Assembly (NCBI GenBank): GCA_963835065.1
Contig: CAWIEK010000048.1
Location: 1 to 64,000, forward strand
DNA length: 64,000 nucleotides
DNA from: an uncultured Chthonomonadaceae bacterium
Lineage (GTDB): Bacteria > Armatimonadota > Chthonomonadetes > Chthonomonadales > Chthonomonadaceae
Direction of reading: 5' to 3'
The notes under the pieces are model-generated. The model saw nothing but the letters and a program-made list of their open reading frames with translations. It did no database searches and was not told where the DNA came from. The translations under genes were made by a program, and so were the position numbers. Positions 2,021 through 53,471 of this stretch are shown here, piece after piece. Every line of letters begins with the position of its first letter. The stretch's first letter is position 1.

Positions 2021-2391
2021 CTGTACATGCAGCGCTGCAAGTGGGTAACAACTACGTGCTAACCGGCATTTCTACCAGACATATTATACTCCCAAATCGG
2101 GGATTTATTGAAGACTAATTCAAAAATTAATAAAAATTTAATTTAATTGCCTATTTAACCAGTAGCATGGTTAGTATCCGTAAATCAATACGTTCCCGAA
2201 CGGGTTGCGAAGCCTACCTTTGCCAACGGGATGTGGGGCAAGCAAAGGATAAAGGATGAAGGATGAAGGATGAAGGTAGGTAGAAAAAAGAGTATGTAGA
2301 GTCATCGTCGAAATCTTGGCAATACAGCGCTTCCAGCCCGATGTCTCATTGTGTCAAGTTGTAGGAGAGAGGCGTCATGGCCTCAGCAGCG

Positions 2392-2418
2392 TCAGGGCGA
2401 ACGGGAGGGGTGGGACAT
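2392..2418 (-). CDS. Putative micro-ORF MSHPSRSP*
   Basis: AAGGAGGT SD, with the ATG 9 nt after GGAGG. The same spacing and the same SRSP-TGA end occur in copy 2 despite divergent intervening bases. Confidence 0.4.
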   Translation of the reverse strand: MSHPSRSP

Positions 2419-2527
2419 GGGCCTGTACCTCCTTTCCTGAGTAGGTAGTTGTAGTTGATAGTTGATAGTTGATAGGAACTCGAGCGTTCAACCTTCCTGT
2501 CTGTATAGTAGACGTTTGTTCTAGTCT

Positions 2528-2555
2528 TTAGACGGCTGCGTGGGGCAAAGGGTTC
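2528..2555 (-). promoter_or_regulatory. ECF-sigma-type promoter (GAAC-N18-GTCTAA)
   Basis: Minus strand GAAC cctttgccccacgcagcc GTCTAA. Identical boxes and spacing occur at 43900-43927, resembling the sigmaE-class consensus. Confidence 0.6.
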
Positions 2556-2797
2556 GTTTATTTTGCGTTATTTTGCTCTTTTTGCTGTCTTTTTTCTGTT
2601 TCTTTTTGGTGAATTGGTTTTGTGGGATTGTTGCTGGATGGTTGCTGTTGGCGTGGTGAGGAACGGGGATGAGGCGCTTGCTTGACGTCTGGAAATCTAT
2701 CACTTCCCGGTGGGCGCAGCAAGCAACGCCCTTACGTTCGGGAAGTTAAAAATTTAGAAACCTTTCCTCTCGCTCATAATCAAAGCAGGCGGAAAGG

Positions 2798-11420: not shown

Positions 11421-14099
11421 ATGTCGCGCTCCTTACGCTTGCTTTCTGTTGTCATGGGGTCGGGTATCGCTTCCATTTTGCTGGCGGGCGTTTGCCCGTC
11501 TGTCGCCGCGCCGCACCCGCCCGAACTGCTTCCAAACACGCTTCCGGCAAAGCGCCGATGCCAACGAAGCCCGCGCTTGATCTCGCCTCGGTTCCCGTCG
11601 CGCTGGTCGTGGAACCGTCCTGTAATTCAGTTGATTGGGCCGCGTTCGCAGGCGCATGTTCTCGTTTCCGCGCGGTTTGCCGACGGCAGCCTGCGCGATG
11701 TCACCGACAAAGCCACGTTCACGCCCAAAAACGCCGCCCTTCTCGCGCTGGAAGCCGATGGTTCGCTGCATCCGCGCAAGGATGGCGACACGCTTCTGGC
11801 CTGCGCGTATGGCGGCAAAACGGCGAGCGTCAAGGTGAGCGTGAAAGACGCGCAAAAAGCCATTCCTGTCAGCTTTACCAACGAAGTTATTCCCCTGTTC
11901 ACGCGCCTGGGCTGCAATCAGGGCGCGTGTCACGGGGCGCAGTACGGCAAGGGCGGCTACAAATTGTCGCTGGCCGGCTTCGACCCCGATCTGGATTACG
12001 CCAACACCGTCAAGCAGGCCAAAGGGCGGCGAGTTTCCGCTGTTGACGCCGGACGCAGCCTGCTGCTTGCCAAGCCCCTGATGAACGTGCCGCACGGCGG
12101 CGGGCGGCGCCTGGAGCGCGACACGCCCGCGTATGCCACCCTGCTGCAATGGCTGCGCGACGGCGCTCCCGGCCCTAATCCCAACGATCCCGCCGTCACT
12201 AAAATTGACGTGTACCCCGCCGAGCGCGTCCTGCAAAAACAAAACGGTTCCCTGCATCTGGTTGTCCGCGCCACGTATGCCAACGGCGCGACCCGCGATG
12301 TAACCGCTACCACGCGCCTTAACACCCTCAACGACGGCATTGCCGCCTGCACCCCTGACGGCCTGATAACCCCCGTCGGCAAAGGCCAAACCGCCATCAT
12401 GGCCCGCTACAGCGGCCAGGCGGCGGTGGCGACGGTGCTTGTGCCGTTCCAATCAGGGAACAGGGAACAGGGAACAGGGAACAGAAAAGGAGAAAAGGAG
12501 AAGAGGAGAAGAGGAGAAGAGGAGAACATAACTCTCAACCCTCAAACCGGGCGTCCACCCGCAGGGAAGGACACAACCCTCAACCCTTCCGCCACTATTG
12601 ACTCCTTTGTTCTGCGCAAGCAGCGGCAGTTGGGGCTTGTGGCGTCGCCGGTTTGCGATGACCGGACGTTTATTCGGCGCGTGTCGCTGGATTTGATCGG
12701 CACGATGCCGACGCCGGATGAAATCAATGCGTTTGTGGCGGACAAGCGTTCCGATAAACGCGCCCTTTGGATCGAAACCCTGCTTTCGCGCCCGGAATAC
12801 GCCGATTATTGGACGCTGAAATGGGGCGACCTGCTGCGCAGTAACCGGCAGACGCTTGGCGCGAAAGGCATGTGGAGTTTCACCAACTGGATACGGACGC
12901 AATTGCAGCAGAACCGCCCCGTAGACCAGTTTGTCAACGACCTGATTATGGCGCAGGGCAGCACGTTCACGAACGGCCCGGCCAACTATTACCGCGTGGT
13001 CAGCGACCCCAAAGATTTGGCGGAAACCACCAGTCAGGTGTTTTTGGGCGTTCGGATGCAGTGCGCCAAATGCCACAACCATCCGTTTGAAAAGTGGACG
13101 CAGGCGGATTATTACCAGTTTGCCGCGTTTTTTGCCCGCGTCGGCATTAAAGGCAGCCAGGAATTCGGGCTGTTCGGCAACGAGCAGATCGTCCGTATCA
13201 ACGACGGCGGCGAAGTTTACCATCCCAAAACCAGCGCGAAGATGCGCCCGACCCCGCTTGGCGTACAACTGGTTTCTCTGCCGGGTAAGACGGACGCGCC
13301 ACCTGCCGACCCGGACGCGAACGGCGACCGCCGCCGCGCGCTTGCCGATTGGCTCACGGCTCCGACTAATCGCCTGTTTGCCCGCAACATCGCCAACCGC
13401 TACTGGGGCTATATGTTCGGCAAGGGGCTGGTCAATCCCATTGACGATATGCGCGTGACCAACCCGCCGACAAACCCGCAATTGCTCGACTTTCTGGCGG
13501 ATGAACTGACTCGCAGCCACTATGATTTGAAGCATCTGCTGACGATTATCTGCAATTCACAGGCGTATCAGCGCAGCAGCGAAGCGACGGGCGACAGTTT
13601 GAAGGACGAACTGTTCTTCACGCACTACATGCCCAAACGTCTGGGAGCCGAAACCCTGCTGGACGCCATTGATTTCGCCTGCGGCACACAGGAAAAGTTC
13701 AACCAACTGCCGCCCGGAACCCGCGCCATCCAACTGCCCGATCCCAACGTCGGCTCCGACTTTCTGGACACGTTCGGGCGTCCCCTGCGCATCATCTCCT
13801 GCGAATGCGAACGGACGGTGGAGCCGAACTTGTCGCAAACCCTGCGCCTGATGAACGGCGAACTGGTCAACCGCAAAATCGGGCAAAGCGAAGGCCGTAT
13901 CTTCAAAATGGTGACGGCCAAAAAGTCCAATGACGCCATTCTCAACGACATTTATATGGCTGCGCTCGGACGCCCGCCCCGCCGAGAAGAGCGTTTGCAG
14001 GTAATGGGCGCACTGGCCTTCGCGCCCGACCGCAAGCCCGTGTTCGAGGACGTGCTGCTCACCCTGCTCAACAGCAAAGAGTTCCTGTTCAACCATTAA
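11421..14099 (+). CDS. DUF1549/DUF1553 domain protein with Ig-like (Big_2) domains
   Basis: SFTNEVIP..GCNQGACHG, FIRRVSLDLIG, QCAKCHNHPFEKW, NRYWGYMFGKGLV and CECER. A short compensated frameshift is likely near 11550-11620. Confidence 0.9.
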   Translation: MSRSLRLLSVVMGSGIASILLAGVCPSVAAPHPPELLPNTLPAKRRCQRSPRLISPRFPSRWSWNRPVIQLIGPRSQAHVLVSARFADGSLRDVTDKATFTPKNAALLALEADGSLHPRKDGDTLLACAYGGKTASVKVSVKDAQKAIPVSFTNEVIPLFTRLGCNQGACHGAQYGKGGYKLSLAGFDPDLDYANTVKQAKGRRVSAVDAGRSLLLAKPLMNVPHGGGRRLERDTPAYATLLQWLRDGAPGPNPNDPAVTKIDVYPAERVLQKQNGSLHLVVRATYANGATRDVTATTRLNTLNDGIAACTPDGLITPVGKGQTAIMARYSGQAAVATVLVPFQSGNREQGTGNRKGEKEKRRRGEEENITLNPQTGRPPAGKDTTLNPSATIDSFVLRKQRQLGLVASPVCDDRTFIRRVSLDLIGTMPTPDEINAFVADKRSDKRALWIETLLSRPEYADYWTLKWGDLLRSNRQTLGAKGMWSFTNWIRTQLQQNRPVDQFVNDLIMAQGSTFTNGPANYYRVVSDPKDLAETTSQVFLGVRMQCAKCHNHPFEKWTQADYYQFAAFFARVGIKGSQEFGLFGNEQIVRINDGGEVYHPKTSAKMRPTPLGVQLVSLPGKTDAPPADPDANGDRRRALADWLTAPTNRLFARNIANRYWGYMFGKGLVNPIDDMRVTNPPTNPQLLDFLADELTRSHYDLKHLLTIICNSQAYQRSSEATGDSLKDELFFTHYMPKRLGAETLLDAIDFACGTQEKFNQLPPGTRAIQLPDPNVGSDFLDTFGRPLRIISCECERTVEPNLSQTLRLMNGELVNRKIGQSEGRIFKMVTAKKSNDAILNDIYMAALGRPPRREERLQVMGALAFAPDRKPVFEDVLLTLLNSKEFLFNH

Positions 14100-14101
14100 A
14101 C

Positions 14102-14172
14102 AGTTGATAGTTCGTAGTTGATAGTTGATAGGGGTGCAGGCGCTATCAACTATGATCTATCAACTATCAACT
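14102..14172. repeat. Heptamer-repeat palindrome (GTTGATA)n...(TATCAAC)n
   Basis: Directly visible inverted tandem heptamers after the DUF1549 stop codon. Confidence 0.9.
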
Positions 14173-14204
14173 CTTGCAAGCCGTAAACCAGGCGCAGGAT
14201 TTGT

Positions 14205-17406: not shown

Positions 17407-17667
17407 TTGCACCACAGAGACACAGAGACACAGAGGTTTCACAGAGAAAAATTCAAAGAGAAAAGAAGAGAATGAAGAGAGATATGTTGGAAGCAAGTGA
17501 GCAAATCCGGTTAGGCGCAGGGGAAAACAGCGTTGTTGATGAACAGGTGAATCATGCTGTTACTTCAACGGCAAGATGGTCGCGCATAGTTAGCCCACCT
17601 CTCTCGTTCTCCCGTTTTTCATCATCCCTCTGTGAAACCTCTGTGTCTCTGTGTCTCTGTGGTGCAA
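17407..17667. repeat. MITE-like palindrome with perfect 40-bp arms built from CACAGAGA octamers
   Basis: 17407-17446 is the exact reverse complement of 17628-17667. A related element lies at 60755-60923. Confidence 0.9.
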
Positions 17668-24717: not shown

Positions 24718-24829
24718 TAGCCGCAAATACACGCAAATAGACGCAAATGAGAAAATCCCTGTACCGATGAACATCTATCGGCGACTGCAATTCTACTCAT
24801 TTGCGTGTATTTGCGTGTATTTGCGGCTA
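24718..24829. repeat. Decamer-repeat palindrome (GCAAATACAC)n between convergent genes, probably acting as a terminator
   Basis: TAGCCGCAAATACACGCAAATAGACGCAAATGAG...CTCATTTGCGTGTATTTGCGTGTATTTGCGGCTA. Confidence 0.9.
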
Positions 24830-38669: not shown

Positions 38670-41600
38670 TTACTTGACGCCCGCAGGCATCTGGTCGGCT
38701 ACGTCTTCCTTGCCGCCGGCTTTGGCGGCCGCGAGTTCCTGCTGTATCTGGCGGTATTCCAGCGATACCACTTTGACGAACTGCGCCTGCGTTTCGGGCC
38801 AGTTCTGGAGGAGGGACGCGCCCCGGTCACTGCGGGTGTACAGGACGTGCCGCTCGATCAGGGTTTTCAATTCGGCTACATCGGCTTCATCCGTGACGGC
38901 TTCCAGCGCGGTCTTGCCGCCGTTGCGGTTGCAGCGGGCGGGGAAGCGGCCTTTGGGGTCCCACACATACGCCACGCCGCCGCTCATGCCCGCCGCGAAG
39001 TTGCGCCCGACTTCGCCCAAAACCACCACCGTGCCGCCCGTCATGTACTCGCAGCCGTGATCGCCCGTGCCTTCCACAACGGCAGTCGCGCCGCTGTTGC
39101 GCACCGCGAACCGCTCGCCCACCACGCCGCGCAAAAACACTTCGCCACTGGTCGCGCCATAAAGCAGCGTGTTGCCCGCGATGATGTTCTCGGCGGGGTC
39201 AAAGGGCGATTGGCGCGGCGGATAGACAATGATGCGCCCGCCCGAAATGCCCTTGCCCAAGATAGTCGTTGGCGTCGCCTTCCAGCGTCATGGTAATGCC
39301 GCGCGCCAGAAACGCGCCGAACGACTGCCCCGCGCTGCCCGTGAATTTCAGGCGAATGGTGTCTTCCGGCAAGCCCTGTTCGCCGTATTTCAGCGCGATA
39401 CGCCCCGACAGCATGGTTCCCACCGTGCGGTTGCGGTTGTAAATCGGCAGTTCGGCGGCAACGGGAATGCCCCGATCCACCGCGCCCTGCGACAAGGCGA
39501 TGAGATGGTAGTCCAGAGCGTCGTCAAGGCCATGCTCCTGCTGCCTGACATGCGACTGCGCGTGTTTGTCCGCGCCTTCCGGCTGCGTGAGAATGGGCGT
39601 CAAATCCAGTCCCCGCGCTTTCCAGTGTTCGATGGCGCAGGTTGCGTCCAGCATGTCAATGCGCCCTACCATTTCGGCAACCGTCCTGAAGCCCAGTTCG
39701 GCCATGATTTCGCGCAGTTCTTCGGCCACGAAGAAGAAGTAATTGATGACGTGTTCCGGCTGGCCCGTAAAGCGCTGCCGCAGAGTTGGGTCCTGCGTGG
39801 CAATGCCGACGGGACACGTTCCCAGATGACACACGCGCATCATAATGCAGCCCATTGCGACAAGCGGCGCGCTGGAAAAGCCGAACTCTTCCGCGCCGAG
39901 CAGGGCGGCAATAGCCACATCGCGCCCCGTTTTCAACTGCCCGTCCGTCTGCACGACGAACGCGCCCGCGCAGGTCGTTTTTGACGAGAGTTTGCTGCGT
40001 TTCCGCCAGTCCCATTTCCCACGGGATGCCCGCGTGCTTGATGCTCGAAACGGGAGACGCGCCCGTTCCGCCGTCATAGCCGCTAATCAAAATGTGGTCG
40101 GCATGGGCTTTGGACACGCCCGCCGCGACCGTGCCGACGCCCACTTCCGCCACCAGTTTGACCGAAATACGCGCGGCGGGATTGACGTTTTTCAGGTCGA
40201 AAATCAACTGCGCGAGGTCTTCGATGGAATAAATGTCGTGGTGCGGCGGCGGCGAAATCAGCGTGACGCCCGGCGTCGTGTGCCGAACGCCCGCGATATA
40301 AGCGTCCACTTTGGTTCCGGGCAGTTCGCCGCCCTCGCCGGGTTTGGCTCCCTGCGCCATCTTAATCTGCAGTTCGTCCGCGTTGACCAGATAATGCGCC
40401 GTGACGCCGAACCGCGCGGACGCGATCTGCTTGATCGCGCTGCGCCGGCTGTCGCCATTGGCTTCGGGCGTGTAGCGGACGGGGTCTTCGCCGCCCTCGC
40501 CCGTGTTGCTTTTGCCGCCCATGCGGTTCATGGCAATCGCCAGCGTCTCATGCGCTTCCCGGCTGATGCTTCCGAGCGACATCGCCCCCGTCACAAACCG
40601 CTTCACAATCTCCCGCGCCGGCTCCACGTCGTCAATTGGAATTGGGCTGCCGACTTTGAATTGCAGCAGACTCCGCAGGGTCGCCAGCGCCTCGCTCGTA
40701 TCATTGACGTGCCTGCTGAACTCCTTAAAGTCGGCAAAGCCCTTTTGAAATGATGAGTGATGAGTGATGAGTGATGAATTGGATTCTGATTCATCATTCA
40801 TCATTCCGCGTTCATCATTTCCCCCCTGCCTTACCGCCTGCTGCAACTGCGCCACCGTATCCGGGTTGTAGGCGTGGTGTTCGCCGAAACGCCGCCACTG
40901 GTACTGCCCGCCCGGATCGAGGTCAATGCTGCCTTTGATGTCCATTTTGGGGTACGCGGACTCGTGGCGGGACAGGCTTTCCTGCTGAATGATGTCCAGG
41001 CCGACGCCGCCCAGACGCGACGGCGTACCGGTGAAATAACGCGCCACCATGTCTTTGTCCAGGCCGATCGCCTCGAAAATCTGCGCGCCCCGGTAGCTTT
41101 GCAGCGTGGAAATGCCCATTTTGGCGAACGTTTTCAGCAGTCCCTTGTTGACGGCTTTGATGAAGTTGATACTGGCTTTGTCCACATTGACTTCGGGCGG
41201 AAACATTTTGTCGCGCCCCATGCTGTCCAGCGTTTCCAGCGCCAGATAGGGGTTGATGGCGGACGCGCCGTAGCCGATGAGAAGGGCAAAGTGCATGACT
41301 TCCCGCGCTTCGCCCGATTCGACGATAAGACCCACGCATGTGCGCGTCCCTTCCCGCACCAGATGGTGATGCACGGCGCTTGTCGCCAGCAGGCTGGGAA
41401 TCGGAGCCGTGTGCGCGTCAATGTCCCGGTCGGACAGAATCAGGAAGCTGTAGCCATCCGCAACGGCGCGGGACGCGGACTTCGCACAGGTTTTGAACGG
41501 CTTTTTCCAGCGCGTCCGGCCCGTCCTCCACGTCGAACCACATCGGCAGGGTTTTGGCGTTGAACTCGCCCGTGCGGACATTGCGCAGTTTTTCCAGCTC

Positions 41601-43336
41601 GAAATTGCGCAGAATGGGCGACTCCAGCTTGAGCATGTGGGCGTGTTGCGGCGTGGCGTCCAGCAGGTTGCCGTCGCTGCCGATGAAGTCCACGAGCGAC
41701 ATGACCAGTTCTTCGCGGATGGGGTCAATGGGCGGGTTCGTCACCTGCGCGAACAACTGCTTGAAGTAGTTGTACAGCAATTGCGGGCGCCTGGACAAAA
41801 CGGCAATCGGCGTGTCCGTGCCCATGCTGCCCAGTGGCTGCTCGCCATTCGTCGCCATCGGGTACAAAATCAGGCGAATGTCTTCCAGCGTATAGCCGAA
41901 CACCTTCTGGCGCGTGAGCAGGGTTTTCTCGTTAGGCAGATGGATGAATGGCGGTTCGGGCAGGTTGTCCAGCGTGATGCGGTTGGCGTCCAGCCACTCT
42001 TTATAAGGATGCTGCGTACAGAGTTCGCGCTTGATCTCGTCGTCGCTGACGATGCCGCCGCTGACTCAGGTCAATCAGGAACATGCGCCCCGGCTGCAAG
42101 CGGCCTTTTTGCACGACGTGGGCCGGGTCGATATCCACAACGCCCGTTTCCGACGCCAGAACCACAAGATCATCGTCCGTGACGCAGTAGCGGGCGGGGC
42201 GCAGGCCGTTGCGGTCCAGCAACGCGCCGATCATGCGCCCGTCCGTGAAGCAAACCGCGGCGGGGCCGTCCCAGGGTTCCATCAGGCAGGCGTGGTACTC
42301 GTAAAACGCGCGGCGCTCGTCGTCCATGCCCGGATCGCCGGTCCACGCTTCCGGCATCAGCATCATCATGGCGTGCGGCAGGCTGCGCCCGCCCAACGTC
42401 AGCAGTTCGACGGCGTTATCCAGAGCGGCGCTGTCGCTGCCGGACTTGTTGATGAGCGGCAGCAGTTTCTTGATGTCGTCGCCGAACAGTTCGGAGGACA
42501 GGGATTTTTCCCGCGCGCTCATCCAGTTGCGGTTGCCGCGCAGGGTATTGATTTCGCCGTTGTGGGCGATGTAGCGGAAGGGATGCGCCAGATCCCAGGT
42601 CGGGAAAGGTGTTGGTGGAAAACCGCTGATGCACCAGCGCGAGGGCGGTGGTCGTGCGCAGGTCGCTCAGGTCGAGATAATAGGCCGCCATCTGATGCGT
42701 CATCAGCAGGCCCTTGTAAACAATGGTGCGGCACGACAGGCTGTTGACGTAAAAATAGCCTTCCTGCTCCAGGCACAATTCCACAATGGCGTTCTGAACG
42801 CGGCGGCGGATGAGGTACAGTTTGCGCTCGAAAGCGTCTTCATCGGCAATGTCCGCGCTGCGCCCGATAAAAATCTGCCGGATGACCGGTTCGACCGTTC
42901 GGGCCAGAGCGCCGATTTTGGCGTGATTGATCGGCACGTCGCGCCAGGCGAGAACGGTCTGCCCTTCTTCCCGTACAATCTGCTCGAAAATCTGCTCATA
43001 CGTGGCGCGTTCGTCGTCTTTGGTGGGCAAAAACAACATGCCCACGCCGTACTCGCCGGGGGCAGGCAAAGCGATGCCCTGTCCCTGCAATTCATCGGCA
43101 AAAAACTCATGCGGAATTTGAAACAGGATGCCCGCGCCGTCGCCCGTATCCGGGTCGCTGCCGGTCGCGCCCCGATGTTCCAGTTTGCGCAGCACGTCCA
43201 AGCCCTGCTTGATGATGGCGTGGGATTTATGGCCTTTGATATGCGCGACGAAGCCGACGCCGCAGGCGTCGTGTTCAAACTGCGGGTCGTACAATCCATG
43301 CGCGGGGGGCAGTTGGCCGGGTTTGGCTTGTTCCAT
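38670..43336 (-). CDS. gltB: Glutamate synthase large subunit, split by about 5 frameshifts (probable sequencing indels)
   Basis: [10 protein letters not shown]-terminus, [36 protein letters not shown] and GCEYMTGG occur in successive frames. Confidence 0.95.
40748..40820. repeat. Heptamer palindrome inserted in frame in gltB (encodes [24 protein letters not shown])
   Basis: AAATGATGAGTGATGAGTGATGAG...TTCATCATTCATCATT..TTCATCATTT. Confidence 0.85.
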
Positions 43337-43747
43337 TGGCGTCGCTTCCGTTCTCGTCCAGCAGGGTGCAGAGTGATGGACACGGCTTGCCGAAAGCAGA
43401 AACAACGGGAACGCGCAGGATGGAAAAGCGGGAGGGCGCGCGGTCTGCAAGCCGTATCAGGCGTATGTGGCCGCGCTTGAATAAGGTGAAAAGCGCGTTT
43501 GCCACAGATTGCTTCCCGTCACGTCATTGTGAAAAGGGAGACAATCATAGCACAAAACGCGCCCCTTTGTCAATGTTTATACAAACGCAAATTTAGATCA
43601 TCCCTTCCTCATGCAGGGCCGACGCATCTAAACGGGAAAGAAAAAGGATATGTAGAGTCATCGTCGAAATCTTGGCAATGCAGCGCTTCCAGCCCGATGT
43701 CTCGTTGTGTCAAATTGTAGGAGAGAGGCGTCGTGGCCTCAGCAGCG

Positions 43748-43777
43748 TCAGGGCGAACGGGAGGAAAATACAGGCAT
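43748..43777 (-). CDS. Putative micro-ORF MPVFSSRSP*
   Basis: GGGAGGTG SD with the ATG 9 nt after GGAGG, as in copy 1. Confidence 0.4.
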   Translation of the reverse strand: MPVFSSRSP

Positions 43778-43899
43778 CTTCCAGCACCTCCCTTCCGGGT
43801 TAGTTGATAGTTGATAGTTGATAGTTGATAGGAACTATGATCTTCAACGTCCCGCCACCTGGCTAGTTAGCAGCCTCTATTATATAGACTTATGTATAC

Positions 43900-43927
43900 T
43901 TAGACGAGTTAGATGCGAGGAAGGTTC
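43900..43927 (-). promoter_or_regulatory. ECF-sigma-type promoter (GAAC-N18-GTCTAA)
   Basis: Minus strand GAAC cttcctcgcatctaactc GTCTAA. Confidence 0.6.
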
Positions 43928-44097
43928 GTTTGTTTCTGCTATTTATGCAGAAATGTTTCTACTTTTTTGCACATTCTTTTTAGATTGATCAACCCGGAGG
44001 AGGGAGCAGGCGCAGCACAGGGGCGAATGACCTACGATGGGATACGTGTTGAGCATTTGAGATGCGCCGACCCTGCTTCCTCATGCACTGCCCTTGA

Positions 44098-44187
44098 CAG
44101 AAGGAAATCGAACGGGTACACAGCAGGTATCAGCGGGCAAAGGAACACTACGCAGCCACCTACGAGGATAAGGACACGCACAAATGA
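44098..44187 (+). pseudogene. C-terminal remnant of a RelE/ParE (Gp49-like) toxin
   Basis: Reads QKEIERVHSRYQRAKEHYAATYEDKDTHK*. Its stop overlaps the antitoxin ATG (ATGA) and the 5' part is missing. Confidence 0.6.
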
Positions 44188-44549
44188 CAGCTATCGTGGA
44201 GAAAGCAAACGCGCAGAAGAGCAGGAATGAGGAGGAAATTACGACTTCTTCCGGCAATGTCTACGAGGATTTAGGGCTGGCACACCCGGACGAGCGCATG
44301 GCAAAATCCGTAATAGCGCTGGCAATTACGGACGCTATCAAGGCGCGTAATCTTACGCAGGCAACAGCAGCAGAACTGATGAACGCGGACGCTTCCCAAC
44401 TTTCGGATTTGCAGCGCGGACGCCTGACCCATATCCCCTTCGACTGCCTGCTCCGGTTCGCCAATGCGCTCGGTCTCGGTGTGCAAATCACTATTCAACC
44501 CACTAATGACGAGCAGGGCAAAACATCAGCGCACACAATGGCAGGGTAA
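44184..44549 (+). CDS. XRE-family HTH antitoxin (HigA-like)
   Basis: SSGNVYEDLG...LTQATAAELM...SQLSDLQRGR...FANALG. Confidence 0.88.
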   Translation: MTAIVEKANAQKSRNEEEITTSSGNVYEDLGLAHPDERMAKSVIALAITDAIKARNLTQATAAELMNADASQLSDLQRGRLTHIPFDCLLRFANALGLGVQITIQPTNDEQGKTSAHTMAG

Positions 44550-44831: not shown

Positions 44832-45077
44832 TTAAGCGAGCGTGGGAGTGGGCAAATCTTCGTACTCGCGGAGTATTTGCTCCGGGGTCTTGGTTTCCCA
44901 TTCCCTGTAGATGTCCTTGATGGAACGTCCACTCGCAACAAGGCGCTCTTCAATGACTGCAACGCGCTTGGATTGCTCGATTTGGAGGGCGGACATTCCT
45001 GCTTCCCGGCAAGCCGTGTCAAGAATCGTTTCCAGCAGGGTTGCAGCGTCTTTTTTCGTGGGTTCAGAAATCATCAC
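44832..45077 (-). CDS. Hypothetical protein (81 aa)
   Basis: Helical-looking ORF with no family recognised. Confidence 0.45.
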   Translation of the reverse strand: MMISEPTKKDAATLLETILDTACREAGMSALQIEQSKRVAVIEERLVASGRSIKDIYREWETKTPEQILREYEDLPTPTLA

Positions 45078-45231: not shown

Positions 45232-45507
45232 ATGGCAATCATACAGACATCGAATAGAGCAGAACAGGCATTGGCTTTGATTGCCAACCTGAATGACGAG
45301 CAATTCGCCAGCCTTGAAGCGGTGCTTAAGGAAGCTGCGTCTGATGAAAATGCGCGTGTTCAAGTATCCTCATCCGGTGAAGCGCAGTTGACACGGGAAG
45401 AAGGACTTATTTTGCTGAAAGCATTTAATGGCCCAACGAGTGAACCATCAACGCGCATGTTGGAAGCTGTAGCCAACTACAAACGAATCATGTCAGAGAC
45501 ACTTTAG
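45232..45507 (+). CDS. Putative antitoxin (DUF1778/TacA-like C-terminus)
   Basis: Ends LTREE...LKAFNGPTSEPSTRMLEAVANY and lies immediately upstream of a GNAT toxin. Confidence 0.6.
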   Translation: MAIIQTSNRAEQALALIANLNDEQFASLEAVLKEAASDENARVQVSSSGEAQLTREEGLILLKAFNGPTSEPSTRMLEAVANYKRIMSETL

Positions 45508-45521
45508 TTGATGTTGGGAAT

Positions 45522-46106
45522 ATGCAGCCGCTAAATCGCTATCGCTTTGAAGTGCTAGCAGAGCAACATGACCTTACATCTTTCGATTGTGGGAATGTTG
45601 CTCTGAATGATTATCTGACCATAGACGCCAAACGAGATGTCAGGATAAATCTACGGCAAACCTACCTCCTGCTTGACTACTCACAATCCCCGGCGTTTGT
45701 TGCAGGCTACTTCACGCTCTGTGCGGATACCGCTGAAATTTGGCACCCCCTTGTTTACGGAACGATCAATTACCCGCTGATCCTCCTTGATTATCTTGCC
45801 CGCCACGTCAATTACAAGCGCATAGGGATTGGGGATGCCCTGTTGATACAGGCTTTTCGCGTCACAGCCGATGTTGCCGCCAGAGTCGGCGTTGCGGGAA
45901 TGCACATCCGAGAAGCCACCAAAGCGGGCAAAAGATTGTATATGCGAGACGTGTATGGTTTTACAATGCACCCTTGCGCTGAAATTGACAGGGATAAGGG
46001 TTTGTACCTTCCCATCCATGACATCCATGCTATTTTAGCCAAACTGGAGACGACCCCTGACCAACCAACCGAAGGTGATCAAGGGCCGAAGTCTGCCGAT
46101 ATCTGA
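45522..46106 (+). CDS. GNAT-family acetyltransferase toxin (TacT/AtaT-like)
   Basis: HDLTSFDCGNVALNDYL, AGYFTL, LARHVNYKRIGIGDALL and YGF. Confidence 0.85.
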   Translation: MQPLNRYRFEVLAEQHDLTSFDCGNVALNDYLTIDAKRDVRINLRQTYLLLDYSQSPAFVAGYFTLCADTAEIWHPLVYGTINYPLILLDYLARHVNYKRIGIGDALLIQAFRVTADVAARVGVAGMHIREATKAGKRLYMRDVYGFTMHPCAEIDRDKGLYLPIHDIHAILAKLETTPDQPTEGDQGPKSADI

Positions 46107-46764: not shown

Positions 46765-46866
46765 TAACAAAGGTGTCGTGGCTGGGGATGCCGTTGGGCA
46801 AGGCCAGCCACTGCGAACCAACCACAAGCCTGATAGTTATTCACAACTTTAGATGCGTTTGCCCTG
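46765..46866 (-). mobile_element. ISAs1-family remnant: terminal IR plus a short transposase fragment
   Basis: The minus strand begins CAGGGCAAACGCATCTAAA (same family as the MITE ends) and then encodes WLALPNGIPSHDTF, the ISAs1 transposase signature. Confidence 0.8.
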
Positions 46867-53345: not shown

Positions 53346-53471
53346 TTAGGTTTCAGGTTTCAGGTGTCAGGTGTCAGGTAAGGACGGCCTGATTGTTTTA
53401 ATTACTGCCGGGCACAAGATGTTAAAATCAGGCTCCTCCTGACACCTGACACCTGAAACCTGAAACCTGAA
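53346..53471. repeat. Heptamer palindrome (GGTTTCA/GGTGTCA)n...(TGACACC/TGAAACC)n
   Basis: Directly visible in the intergenic region. Confidence 0.9.

Follow-up and report, generated by a model that had tools for sequence, protein, structure and literature searches.

The element at positions 43614-44075 of the window, by which we mean the whole stretch of 64,000 nucleotides analysed here, is on the evidence of its sequence a non-autonomous MITE of the ISAs1 family, and it carries an undescribed, selected mini-gene RNA. Its position near the glutamate synthase gene gltB is likely a by-product of homing to promoters. The reading that we place in front, and to which we give an even chance, is that an ISAs1 MITE homing to sites upstream of sigma70 promoters carries a unit that is likely transcribed by an ECF sigma factor, likely traps a ribosome at a proline-stop junction, and would thereby slow translation.

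Below, G000 denotes the source genome, and G001 and G002 its congeners, likewise uncultured Chthonomonadaceae (Armatimonadota). The features that define the element and its surroundings are the following:

43604..43613: target-site duplication, left copy, 10 bp
43614..44075, minus strand: ISAs1-type MITE, 462 bp, without a transposase
43614..43632, plus strand: terminal inverted repeat on the RNA 3' side, 18/19 identical to an IS end of G002
44057..44075, minus strand: terminal inverted repeat on the promoter side, 19/21 identical to the left end of the G002 IS
44076..44085: target-site duplication, right copy, 10 bp
43544..43573, minus strand: sigma70-type promoter motif of gltB itself, TTGACA-18-TATGAT with TG, between gltB and the element and conserved in G002
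44094..44122, plus strand: TTGACA at 18 nt from the end of the element, followed by a weak -10 (TACACA); likely the promoter of the helix-turn-helix gene and likely the insertion target
44184..44549, plus strand: helix-turn-helix gene, 121 aa, divergent from gltB (HTH_37, E 2e-19)
46769..46866, minus strand: ISAs1 remnant, with one end and a 13-residue transposase fragment

The 462-bp element, its terminal inverted repeats and its perfect 10-bp duplication had been proposed in an earlier, sequence-only reading of this DNA, and all of them are real. The duplicated 10-mer, CTTCCTCATG, has exactly two occurrences in the 64-kb window (43604-43613 and 44076-44085). The two 19-bp terminal repeats agree with one another at 16/19 positions, and the end of the nearby remnant (46848-46866), whose resemblance to them had also been pointed out, agrees with them at 17/19 and 14/19. 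The 13-residue stretch of the remnant is identical at 12/13 residues to the transposase of an intact ISAs1 in G002. This intact copy, of 1271 bp, encodes a 388-aa transposase (PF13808 + PF01609) and has ends that match those of the MITE; only the terminal ~20 bp are common to the two, and the interior of the MITE is unrelated. Like ISAs1 insertion sequences and MITEs, then, the element has CAGGG-type ends and a 10-bp duplication, but it differs from the insertion sequences in that it lacks a transposase and contains an unrelated cargo.

The classification as a non-autonomous ISAs1-like MITE is borne out by the many further copies as well as by the cognate transposon of G002. A search of G000 recovered 19 MITEs with both ISAs1-type ends, 351-653 bp long and with a mutual identity of 68-94%, of which 10 have target duplications matching at 9/10 positions or better, 6 of them exactly. 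Five further MITEs could be delimited in G002, where some loci are too short to contain both ends. The intact cognate transposase that the sequence-only reading had called for is thus present in G002, but neither it nor any PF13808 match was found in the G000 assembly (92% complete); the mobiliser in G000 is lost, unassembled or a thing of the past. Among public DNA contigs, those of relatives from runs X1 and X4 cease matching at 43575 and one record of run X3 spans the left junction of the MITE; the insertion site may be polymorphic. G001 has no unit at gltB, and its locus is too diverged to display the target. The 28 bp between the gltB -35 box and the duplication (43576-43603) include what looks like a degraded ISAs1 end, which an earlier insertion at the gltB promoter may have left.

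The sequence-only reading went further, and proposed that a transposon had captured and was spreading an ECF-responsive cassette that could rewire the expression of glutamate synthase. In the form considered here, the MITE would bring an ECF-type promoter that reads into gltB and other neighbouring genes and places them under stress control. The placement on which it was based is correct: the conserved cargo is on the minus strand, directed at gltB, and lies 277 bp (about 280 bp had been stated) from the start codon at 43336 of this gene, whose product has a GATase_2 domain. Some observations favor read-through. No canonical terminator was found on the minus strand; 12/18 MITE copies face a co-oriented gene; and in G002, too, an ISAs1 MITE with a unit precedes gltB and is oriented the same way, its unit core being the second closest of the 41 G002 copies to the cargo studied here. 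IS1548 is itself a member of the ISAs1 family. One study describes modulation of murB by IS1548 (PMC8744998).

Nevertheless, we consider read-through as the explanation of the cassette quite improbable, and a rewiring of glutamate synthase unlikely. A near-consensus promoter motif of gltB's own lies 40 bp outside the MITE and is kept in both species, and the cargo is a self-contained mini-gene. Copies outside MITEs face an opposite gene in 92/143 cases (a count, like that for MITE copies, made with a home-made gene caller), and no shared function emerged among the 72 neighbours scanned out of 108. In G001 the unit is missing from gltB altogether. The G002 insertion lies 18 nt from the gltB -35 box, its outer arm differs, and no duplication can be recognised around it; homing explains it, and it is probably an independent homing event, shared ancestry with the G000 element being also possible. 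Since no canonical terminator was found on the minus strand, some leakage of the unit transcript into gltB is possible, but this is not what the unit is conserved for. The gltB frame in the window is split into several frames at 42000-42650 and ~41700, most likely through long-read indel errors, and single-base oddities of this assembly call for caution.

What the insertion site fits, as opposed to a cis-acting gltB cassette, is homing to the promoter of the gene on the opposite side. In 15/24 MITEs, a hexamer resembling a -10 box is found 40-42 nt beyond one of the ends, against an average of 2.3 and at most 7 for other 3-nt windows of these flanks. The same spacing is seen at 7/8 further ISAs1-type ends in G000, and a hexamer also lies 42 nt beyond the end of the remnant at 46769..46866. 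Among full-length ISAs1 loci of other Armatimonadota, it recurs in 10/21 distinct loci (background mean 1.7, maximum 4); this set derives from 49 ISAs1 loci, of which 34 yielded both ends and 22 a duplication matching at 9/10 positions or better, with one locus represented twice. As copies are related to each other, counts overstate the number of independent events. A hexamer at 40-42 nt places the -35 box ~18 nt from the ISAs1 end. The MITE at 43614-44075 itself fails the hexamer test on its target side, where the -10 is TACACA, and the case for homing here rests on the exact TTGACA 18 nt from its right end. Because this box stands at precisely that distance and the gltB -35 box stands 40 nt from the left end, the sequence indicates that the target was likely the promoter of the divergent HTH_37 gene.

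TnGBS, ISLre2 and ISKra4 behave in a similar way, inserting ahead of the -35 box of housekeeping promoters at a constant spacing (PMC3942029). According to the same study, the distance for TnGBS and ISLre2 is 15-17 bp, compared with ~18 for ISAs1 here; their insertions are oriented, whereas the homed promoter is at the RNA 3' side in 10 of our cases and at the promoter side in 8; and the transposases of TnGBS, ISLre2 and ISKra4 are Mutator-like and unrelated to ISAs1. Our literature searches, whose coverage stopped short of the IS1548 target study (PMID 23305302), found no report of fixed-distance promoter targeting by ISAs1. ISAs1 would join the few transposase groups that home to promoters. 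Many upstream insertions that look "regulatory" would then be explained without invoking selection on the genes concerned, and the question arises of contact between transposase and RNA polymerase.

The cargo has an elaborate architecture, which follows on the minus strand the order promoter motif, GTCTA, variable leader, Shine-Dalgarno sequence (SD), mini-ORF, RNA domain and U-rich tail:

43900..43927, minus strand: predicted ECF-type promoter motif GAAC-N17-CGTC (-35 at 43922-43927, -10 at 43900-43906)
43883..43890, minus strand: second conserved motif GTCTA, 15-21 nt past the -10 box
43801..43828: leader, a variable array of a 7-bp repeat
43787..43792, minus strand: Shine-Dalgarno GGGAGG
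43748..43777, minus strand: mini-ORF of 9 codons (MPVFSSRSP) plus TGA, with an R-x-P-stop end
43725..43740, minus strand: hairpin P1, beginning 7 nt after the stop; pairing holds in 98.5% of cells, and two-sided change is seen at one pair
43649..43703, minus strand: 3' RNA domain, stem P2 around a near-invariant core (43673-43693), GNRA-type loop
43637..43645, minus strand: U-rich tract with no canonical terminator hairpin before it
2285..2560, minus strand: copy 1 of the cargo unit, mini-ORF of the MSHPSRSP type, without ISAs1 ends; upstream boundary approximate

Over 124 nt the cargo is 95% identical to copy 1 (2285-2408). As had been stated, copy 1 shows no ISAs1 inverted repeats; a decayed ISAzo13-type end lies ~100 nt beyond its 3' end. 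The promoter boxes are conserved, with a variable spacer between them, in 144-158 of the 162 G000 copies, depending on which of two patterns is used. With an AAC-type -35, a CGTC-type -10 and a spacer of ~17 nt, the motif agrees with the ECF consensus, and we take it to be of the ECF type. The earlier description of an ECF-responsive cassette therefore holds at the level of the motif, but no cognate ECF sigma was found among 57 sigma genes: the best motif score among these lies 731 nt before a group 2/3-type sigma gene, which is not an ECF. This gene, at the locus G000:C9:66894-68518 (L141), encodes 297 aa, and a sigma cascade would be one possibility.

Six copies, namely 5/13 in G001 (L006, L009, L012, L015, L018) and one in G002 (L045), have a different upstream motif, an apparent promoter swap; the five from G001 also show an extended leader and, in most cases, an ORF of 15 codons with a non-AUG start, and retain an RPP-stop end. 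One G000 locus (G000:C54:109076; L140:1500-1690) has the promoter and leader but no mini-ORF or core, another repeat interrupting it.

We compared 216 copies, leaving out one false G001 match and 5 G002 copies that failed the filter. An in-frame start with an SD is present in 207/216, and the stop codon lies 6-9 nt ahead of P1 in 214/216, with exactly 7 nt in 209. The mini-ORFs are 8-9 codons long and their last codon encodes proline in 212/214 copies, with all four proline codons and all three stops in use. The two preceding codons are mostly Arg (194 of 214) and then Ser (146) or Pro (59), so that 146/214 end in Ser-Pro-stop and 59/214 in Pro-Pro-stop. Conservation is of the coding type, in that codon positions 1 and 2 and the stop function are kept and position 3 and the spacer vary; the core is still more invariant than the mini-ORF.

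As judged from the alignment, the two helices covary. In 53 aligned copies, 94.5% of the cells of 14 proposed pairs are paired and 23 cells show two-sided change; 0/500 shuffles reach either value, and slid controls are 35-56% paired. Two-sided change affects 5 of the pairs, a number that lacks significance (48/500 shuffles). The fold given here consists of P1 and of P2 around the core (43673-43693), and RNAalifold alone recovers only P1. In addition, the predicted fold of the MITE copy pairs the SD with the mini-ORF, which could damp translation; such an SD-sequestering hairpin is unproven, being more stable than synonymous recodings for 87% of the 150 G000 copies compared, against 53% of the 38 from G002.

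These patterns bear on the alternative that the unit is a functionless repeat whose copies are alike through recent copying and gene conversion. Homogenisation within genomes does point this way, the median identity of units being 0.91 within G000 as against 0.81 between G000 and G002. However, the fixed first and second codon positions and stop function beside varying third positions and spacer, the existence of compensatory pairs, and the persistence of this pattern at 68% identity to the G001 copies have already largely refuted this reading, which we regard as very improbable indeed.

The 124-nt core is present in 162 copies in G000, and pattern matches number 46 in G002 and 14 in G001 (13 without the false match). 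The ISAs1 family accounts for a minority of these: 19 of the G000 copies are two-ended and ~30 have an ISAs1-type inner arm, whereas ~40 have ISAzo13-type ends and 86 have no recognisable ends, the ISAs1 and ISAzo13 labels being loose and including false positives. The claim that a transposon is spreading the cargo consequently stands for this minority, while most of the 162 copies lie outside ISAs1 shells; in G001, 0/13 units have ISAs1 ends. The second carrier family has 1361-bp parents encoding ISAzo13 transposases. Two such elements, with a split ORF, lie at G000:C41:162053-163413 and C53:451924-453284, and at least 14 mini-elements of 78-91 bp have the same ends and TAA/TTA flanks.

A tree of the 216 copies is weak (8/212 branches starred) and does not fix the direction of capture, although one 68-row branch that spans G000 and G002 (support 83) gathers 55 of the 63 rows in which ISAs1 ends or the inner arm are present. 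A G000 unit lies within 2 kb of the flank match for 12/38 G002 and 4/12 G001 copies that have such a match. Among the listed syntenic groups, we inspected 11; copies persist at such positions across species. For 10 pairs of units that share a position in G000 and G002, identity of the G000 member is higher to the remaining G000 units (0.89-0.93) than to its counterpart in G002 (0.76-0.88). This closeness within genomes suggests either old loci that have been made uniform within each species or sites that were occupied more than once.

Another possibility is that the unit behaves selfishly, for example as an RNA toxin of the addiction type or an aid to mobility, and favors its carriers and not the host. 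Two unrelated IS families have picked it up, only one of the genera searched contains it, and its numbers follow IS content, from 13 copies in G001, which has neither transposase, through 46 in G002, which has both, to 162 in G000, with its ISAzo13 and ISAs1 remnants. Yet most copies have lost their IS ends and still retain an intact promoter, SD, reading frame and fold; searches for an antitoxin and for a CRISPR spacer that matches the unit gave nothing, and Cas1 is absent from both G001 and G002. We think this reading improbable, if slightly less so than read-through into gltB.

The units also avoid each other, with 4/105 neighbour gaps below 10 kb where 24% are expected, and none of 2000 random draws of intergenic gaps was as low. 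For six other repeat motifs the gaps are as expected at random. Loss through deletion between neighbouring direct repeats was rejected as the cause, both relative orientations, and hence inverted pairs too, being depleted among close pairs. Units near contig ends are in excess (11 against 3.9 expected), which may hide a few close pairs.

Among the genomes searched, the unit was found only in this genus. BLAST gave no match in 38 non-congeneric relatives, and a covariance model gave none in 150 genomes of the phylum; in 37 non-congeneric genomes of the family there was none at E<=0.001, the one match at E 0.044 lacking the motif. Rfam gave no match at the gathering score in the window and none at E<=10 for the element, and the unit was not found in viral contigs or JGI metagenomes, these wider scans using exact patterns that miss diverged forms. 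Literature searches returned nothing like the unit for this phylum. A single promoterless copy in a Solirubrobacteraceae genome (L110:1440-1610; G237:C7:46183-46313), fused to unrelated DNA and to a truncated ORF that resembles a penicillin-binding protein, is probably an assembly chimera and possibly an insertion.

In considering what the unit might do, we infer from sequence its transcription, its ECF dependence, ribosome loading, slow release at the proline-stop junction and the physiological effect. The proposed course of events is as follows: 1) a stress (ECF) sigma factor would transcribe the unit into an RNA of ~250 nt; 2) this RNA would load a ribosome through the SD onto the mini-ORF; 3) the ribosome would be held at the proline-stop junction by slow release; 4) P1, which starts at +14 from the P-site codon, would then, given the geometry of the ribosome, sit where the mRNA enters the stalled particle; and 5) joint induction of 162 copies would plausibly throttle translation, giving a reversible, dormancy-like slowdown. 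Such a module would extend mini-ORF RNA toxins from single genes that guard CRISPR systems to a host stress response of more than 100 dispersed copies amplified by transposons, and, if trapping is true, would supply a natural 100-nt module for the study of proline termination and inducible dormancy. More ambitiously, and only tentatively, the units may be a new class of bacterial RNA gene, comprising up to 160 evenly spaced mini-mRNAs driven by a stress sigma, in which a ribosome catch at Pro-stop and an RNA domain at the entry channel achieve hibernation by RNA only, with ISAs1 and ISAzo13 MITEs amplifying the units and gene conversion homogenising them.

By analogy, the unit would work most like the CreT mini-ORF RNA toxins. 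CreT of P. aeruginosa, the proline-codon toxin, is likewise a stand-alone RNA gene with an SD, a mini-ORF ending in proline-stop and a hairpin (bioRxiv 10.64898/2026.06.02.729485 and PMC8501985), and the SD, the Pro-Pro-stop mini-ORF and the hairpin are each needed for bacteriostasis (same preprint). CreT has an ORF of 15 nt, and according to the preprint it requires two prolines and tolerates a 15-nt insertion ahead of the hairpin. The unit, by contrast, has 8-9 codons, mostly a Ser-Pro-stop end with two consecutive proline codons in only 59/214 copies, a fixed 7-nt spacing and an extra conserved 3' domain, an ECF-type promoter, and 13-162 copies per genome. We therefore do not class it as CreT proper, the two prolines being a minority, the spacing fixed, and a link to CreA or CRISPR not found. 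Unit copies are dispersed, and the search for such a link covered 86 CRISPR spacer segments, which gave only short chance-word matches to the unit. CRISPR arrays of G000 were noted at C42, C49:683931, C63:58921-63200, C69 and C2:91453, with four Cas1 matches elsewhere; the repeat end of some of these arrays matches an abundant dispersed palindromic repeat.

A second parallel lies in C-terminal stall sequences. RAPP-type and TnaC arrest peptides have comparable C-termini of the R-x-P/P-P type. An R-x-P or P-P C-terminus before the stop also marks the YbeL-PP stall, and a C-terminal Pro-Pro blocks or impairs termination there (PMC3834316). The unit ORF differs from arrest peptides in being far shorter and in not being the leader of any consistent downstream gene; a leader or attenuator was accordingly rejected, non-MITE copies being in the same orientation as their neighbour in 51 cases against 92 opposite, and the neighbours being unrelated. 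As intergenic non-autonomous elements with promoters or sRNAs, Correia, QMITE1/2 and MITEAba12 are also similar, but their promoters are sigma70-like (PMC10969869), and the cargo here is distinct in being a mini-gene under selection, which persists after its shell is lost and is carried by two families of IS.

Several points count against the trap. Only the minority just given end in Pro-Pro-stop, whereas the P. aeruginosa toxin, according to the preprint cited, needs two prolines; a peptide of 8-9 residues barely reaches the exit tunnel, and strong arrest is not assured; neither a cognate ECF sigma nor an antitoxin was found; the six variant copies depart from the upstream motif; and the near-invariant 3' core is not accounted for by trapping alone. 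In the principal rival reading, the ribosome that pauses does no more than shield or chaperone the RNA, function resides in the 3' RNA domain, which binds a protein or the surface of the ribosome, and the evenly placed copies serve dosage or chromosome organisation. The greater invariance of the core than of the ORF, the fixed 7-nt spacing, which is unlike that of CreT, and the mutual avoidance of copies all speak for it. Conversely, no partner protein or gene accompanies the unit among the neighbours scanned, a CsrA sponge is unlikely, and the strict conservation of Pro-stop suggests selection on the pause itself. We accordingly rate this rival as having a real but minor chance, somewhat below that of the new RNA class.

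Further candidates were tried and set aside. Frameshifting or readthrough at CCC-UGA-C was rejected, no frame after the stop staying open across species: the +1 frame is open in 129/157 copies in G000, 10/39 in G002 and 5/13 in G001, and frame 0 in 60/157, 6/39 and 11/13, respectively. A CsrA sponge would be hard to reconcile with a core loop that is GAAA, and not GGAA, in 15/209 copies; CsrA itself is present. Bridge or omega RNAs were rejected for the lack of a variable guide segment and of any nuclease or recombinase among the 72 neighbours.

Two other features of the window were noted. Near the HTH gene, ORFs of 91 aa and 194 aa (45232-46106 and 44832-45077) form a toxin-antitoxin-like pair, of which the 194-aa ORF is GNAT-like by eye, with no Pfam match at 0.001. 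The window also contains many inverted pairs of short tandem-repeat arrays, mostly with 7-bp units and some within coding regions, at sites that include the following:

14099-14175: tandem-repeat array
17407-17667: tandem-repeat array
24718-24829: tandem-repeat array
40747-40821: tandem-repeat array
53348-53468: tandem-repeat array
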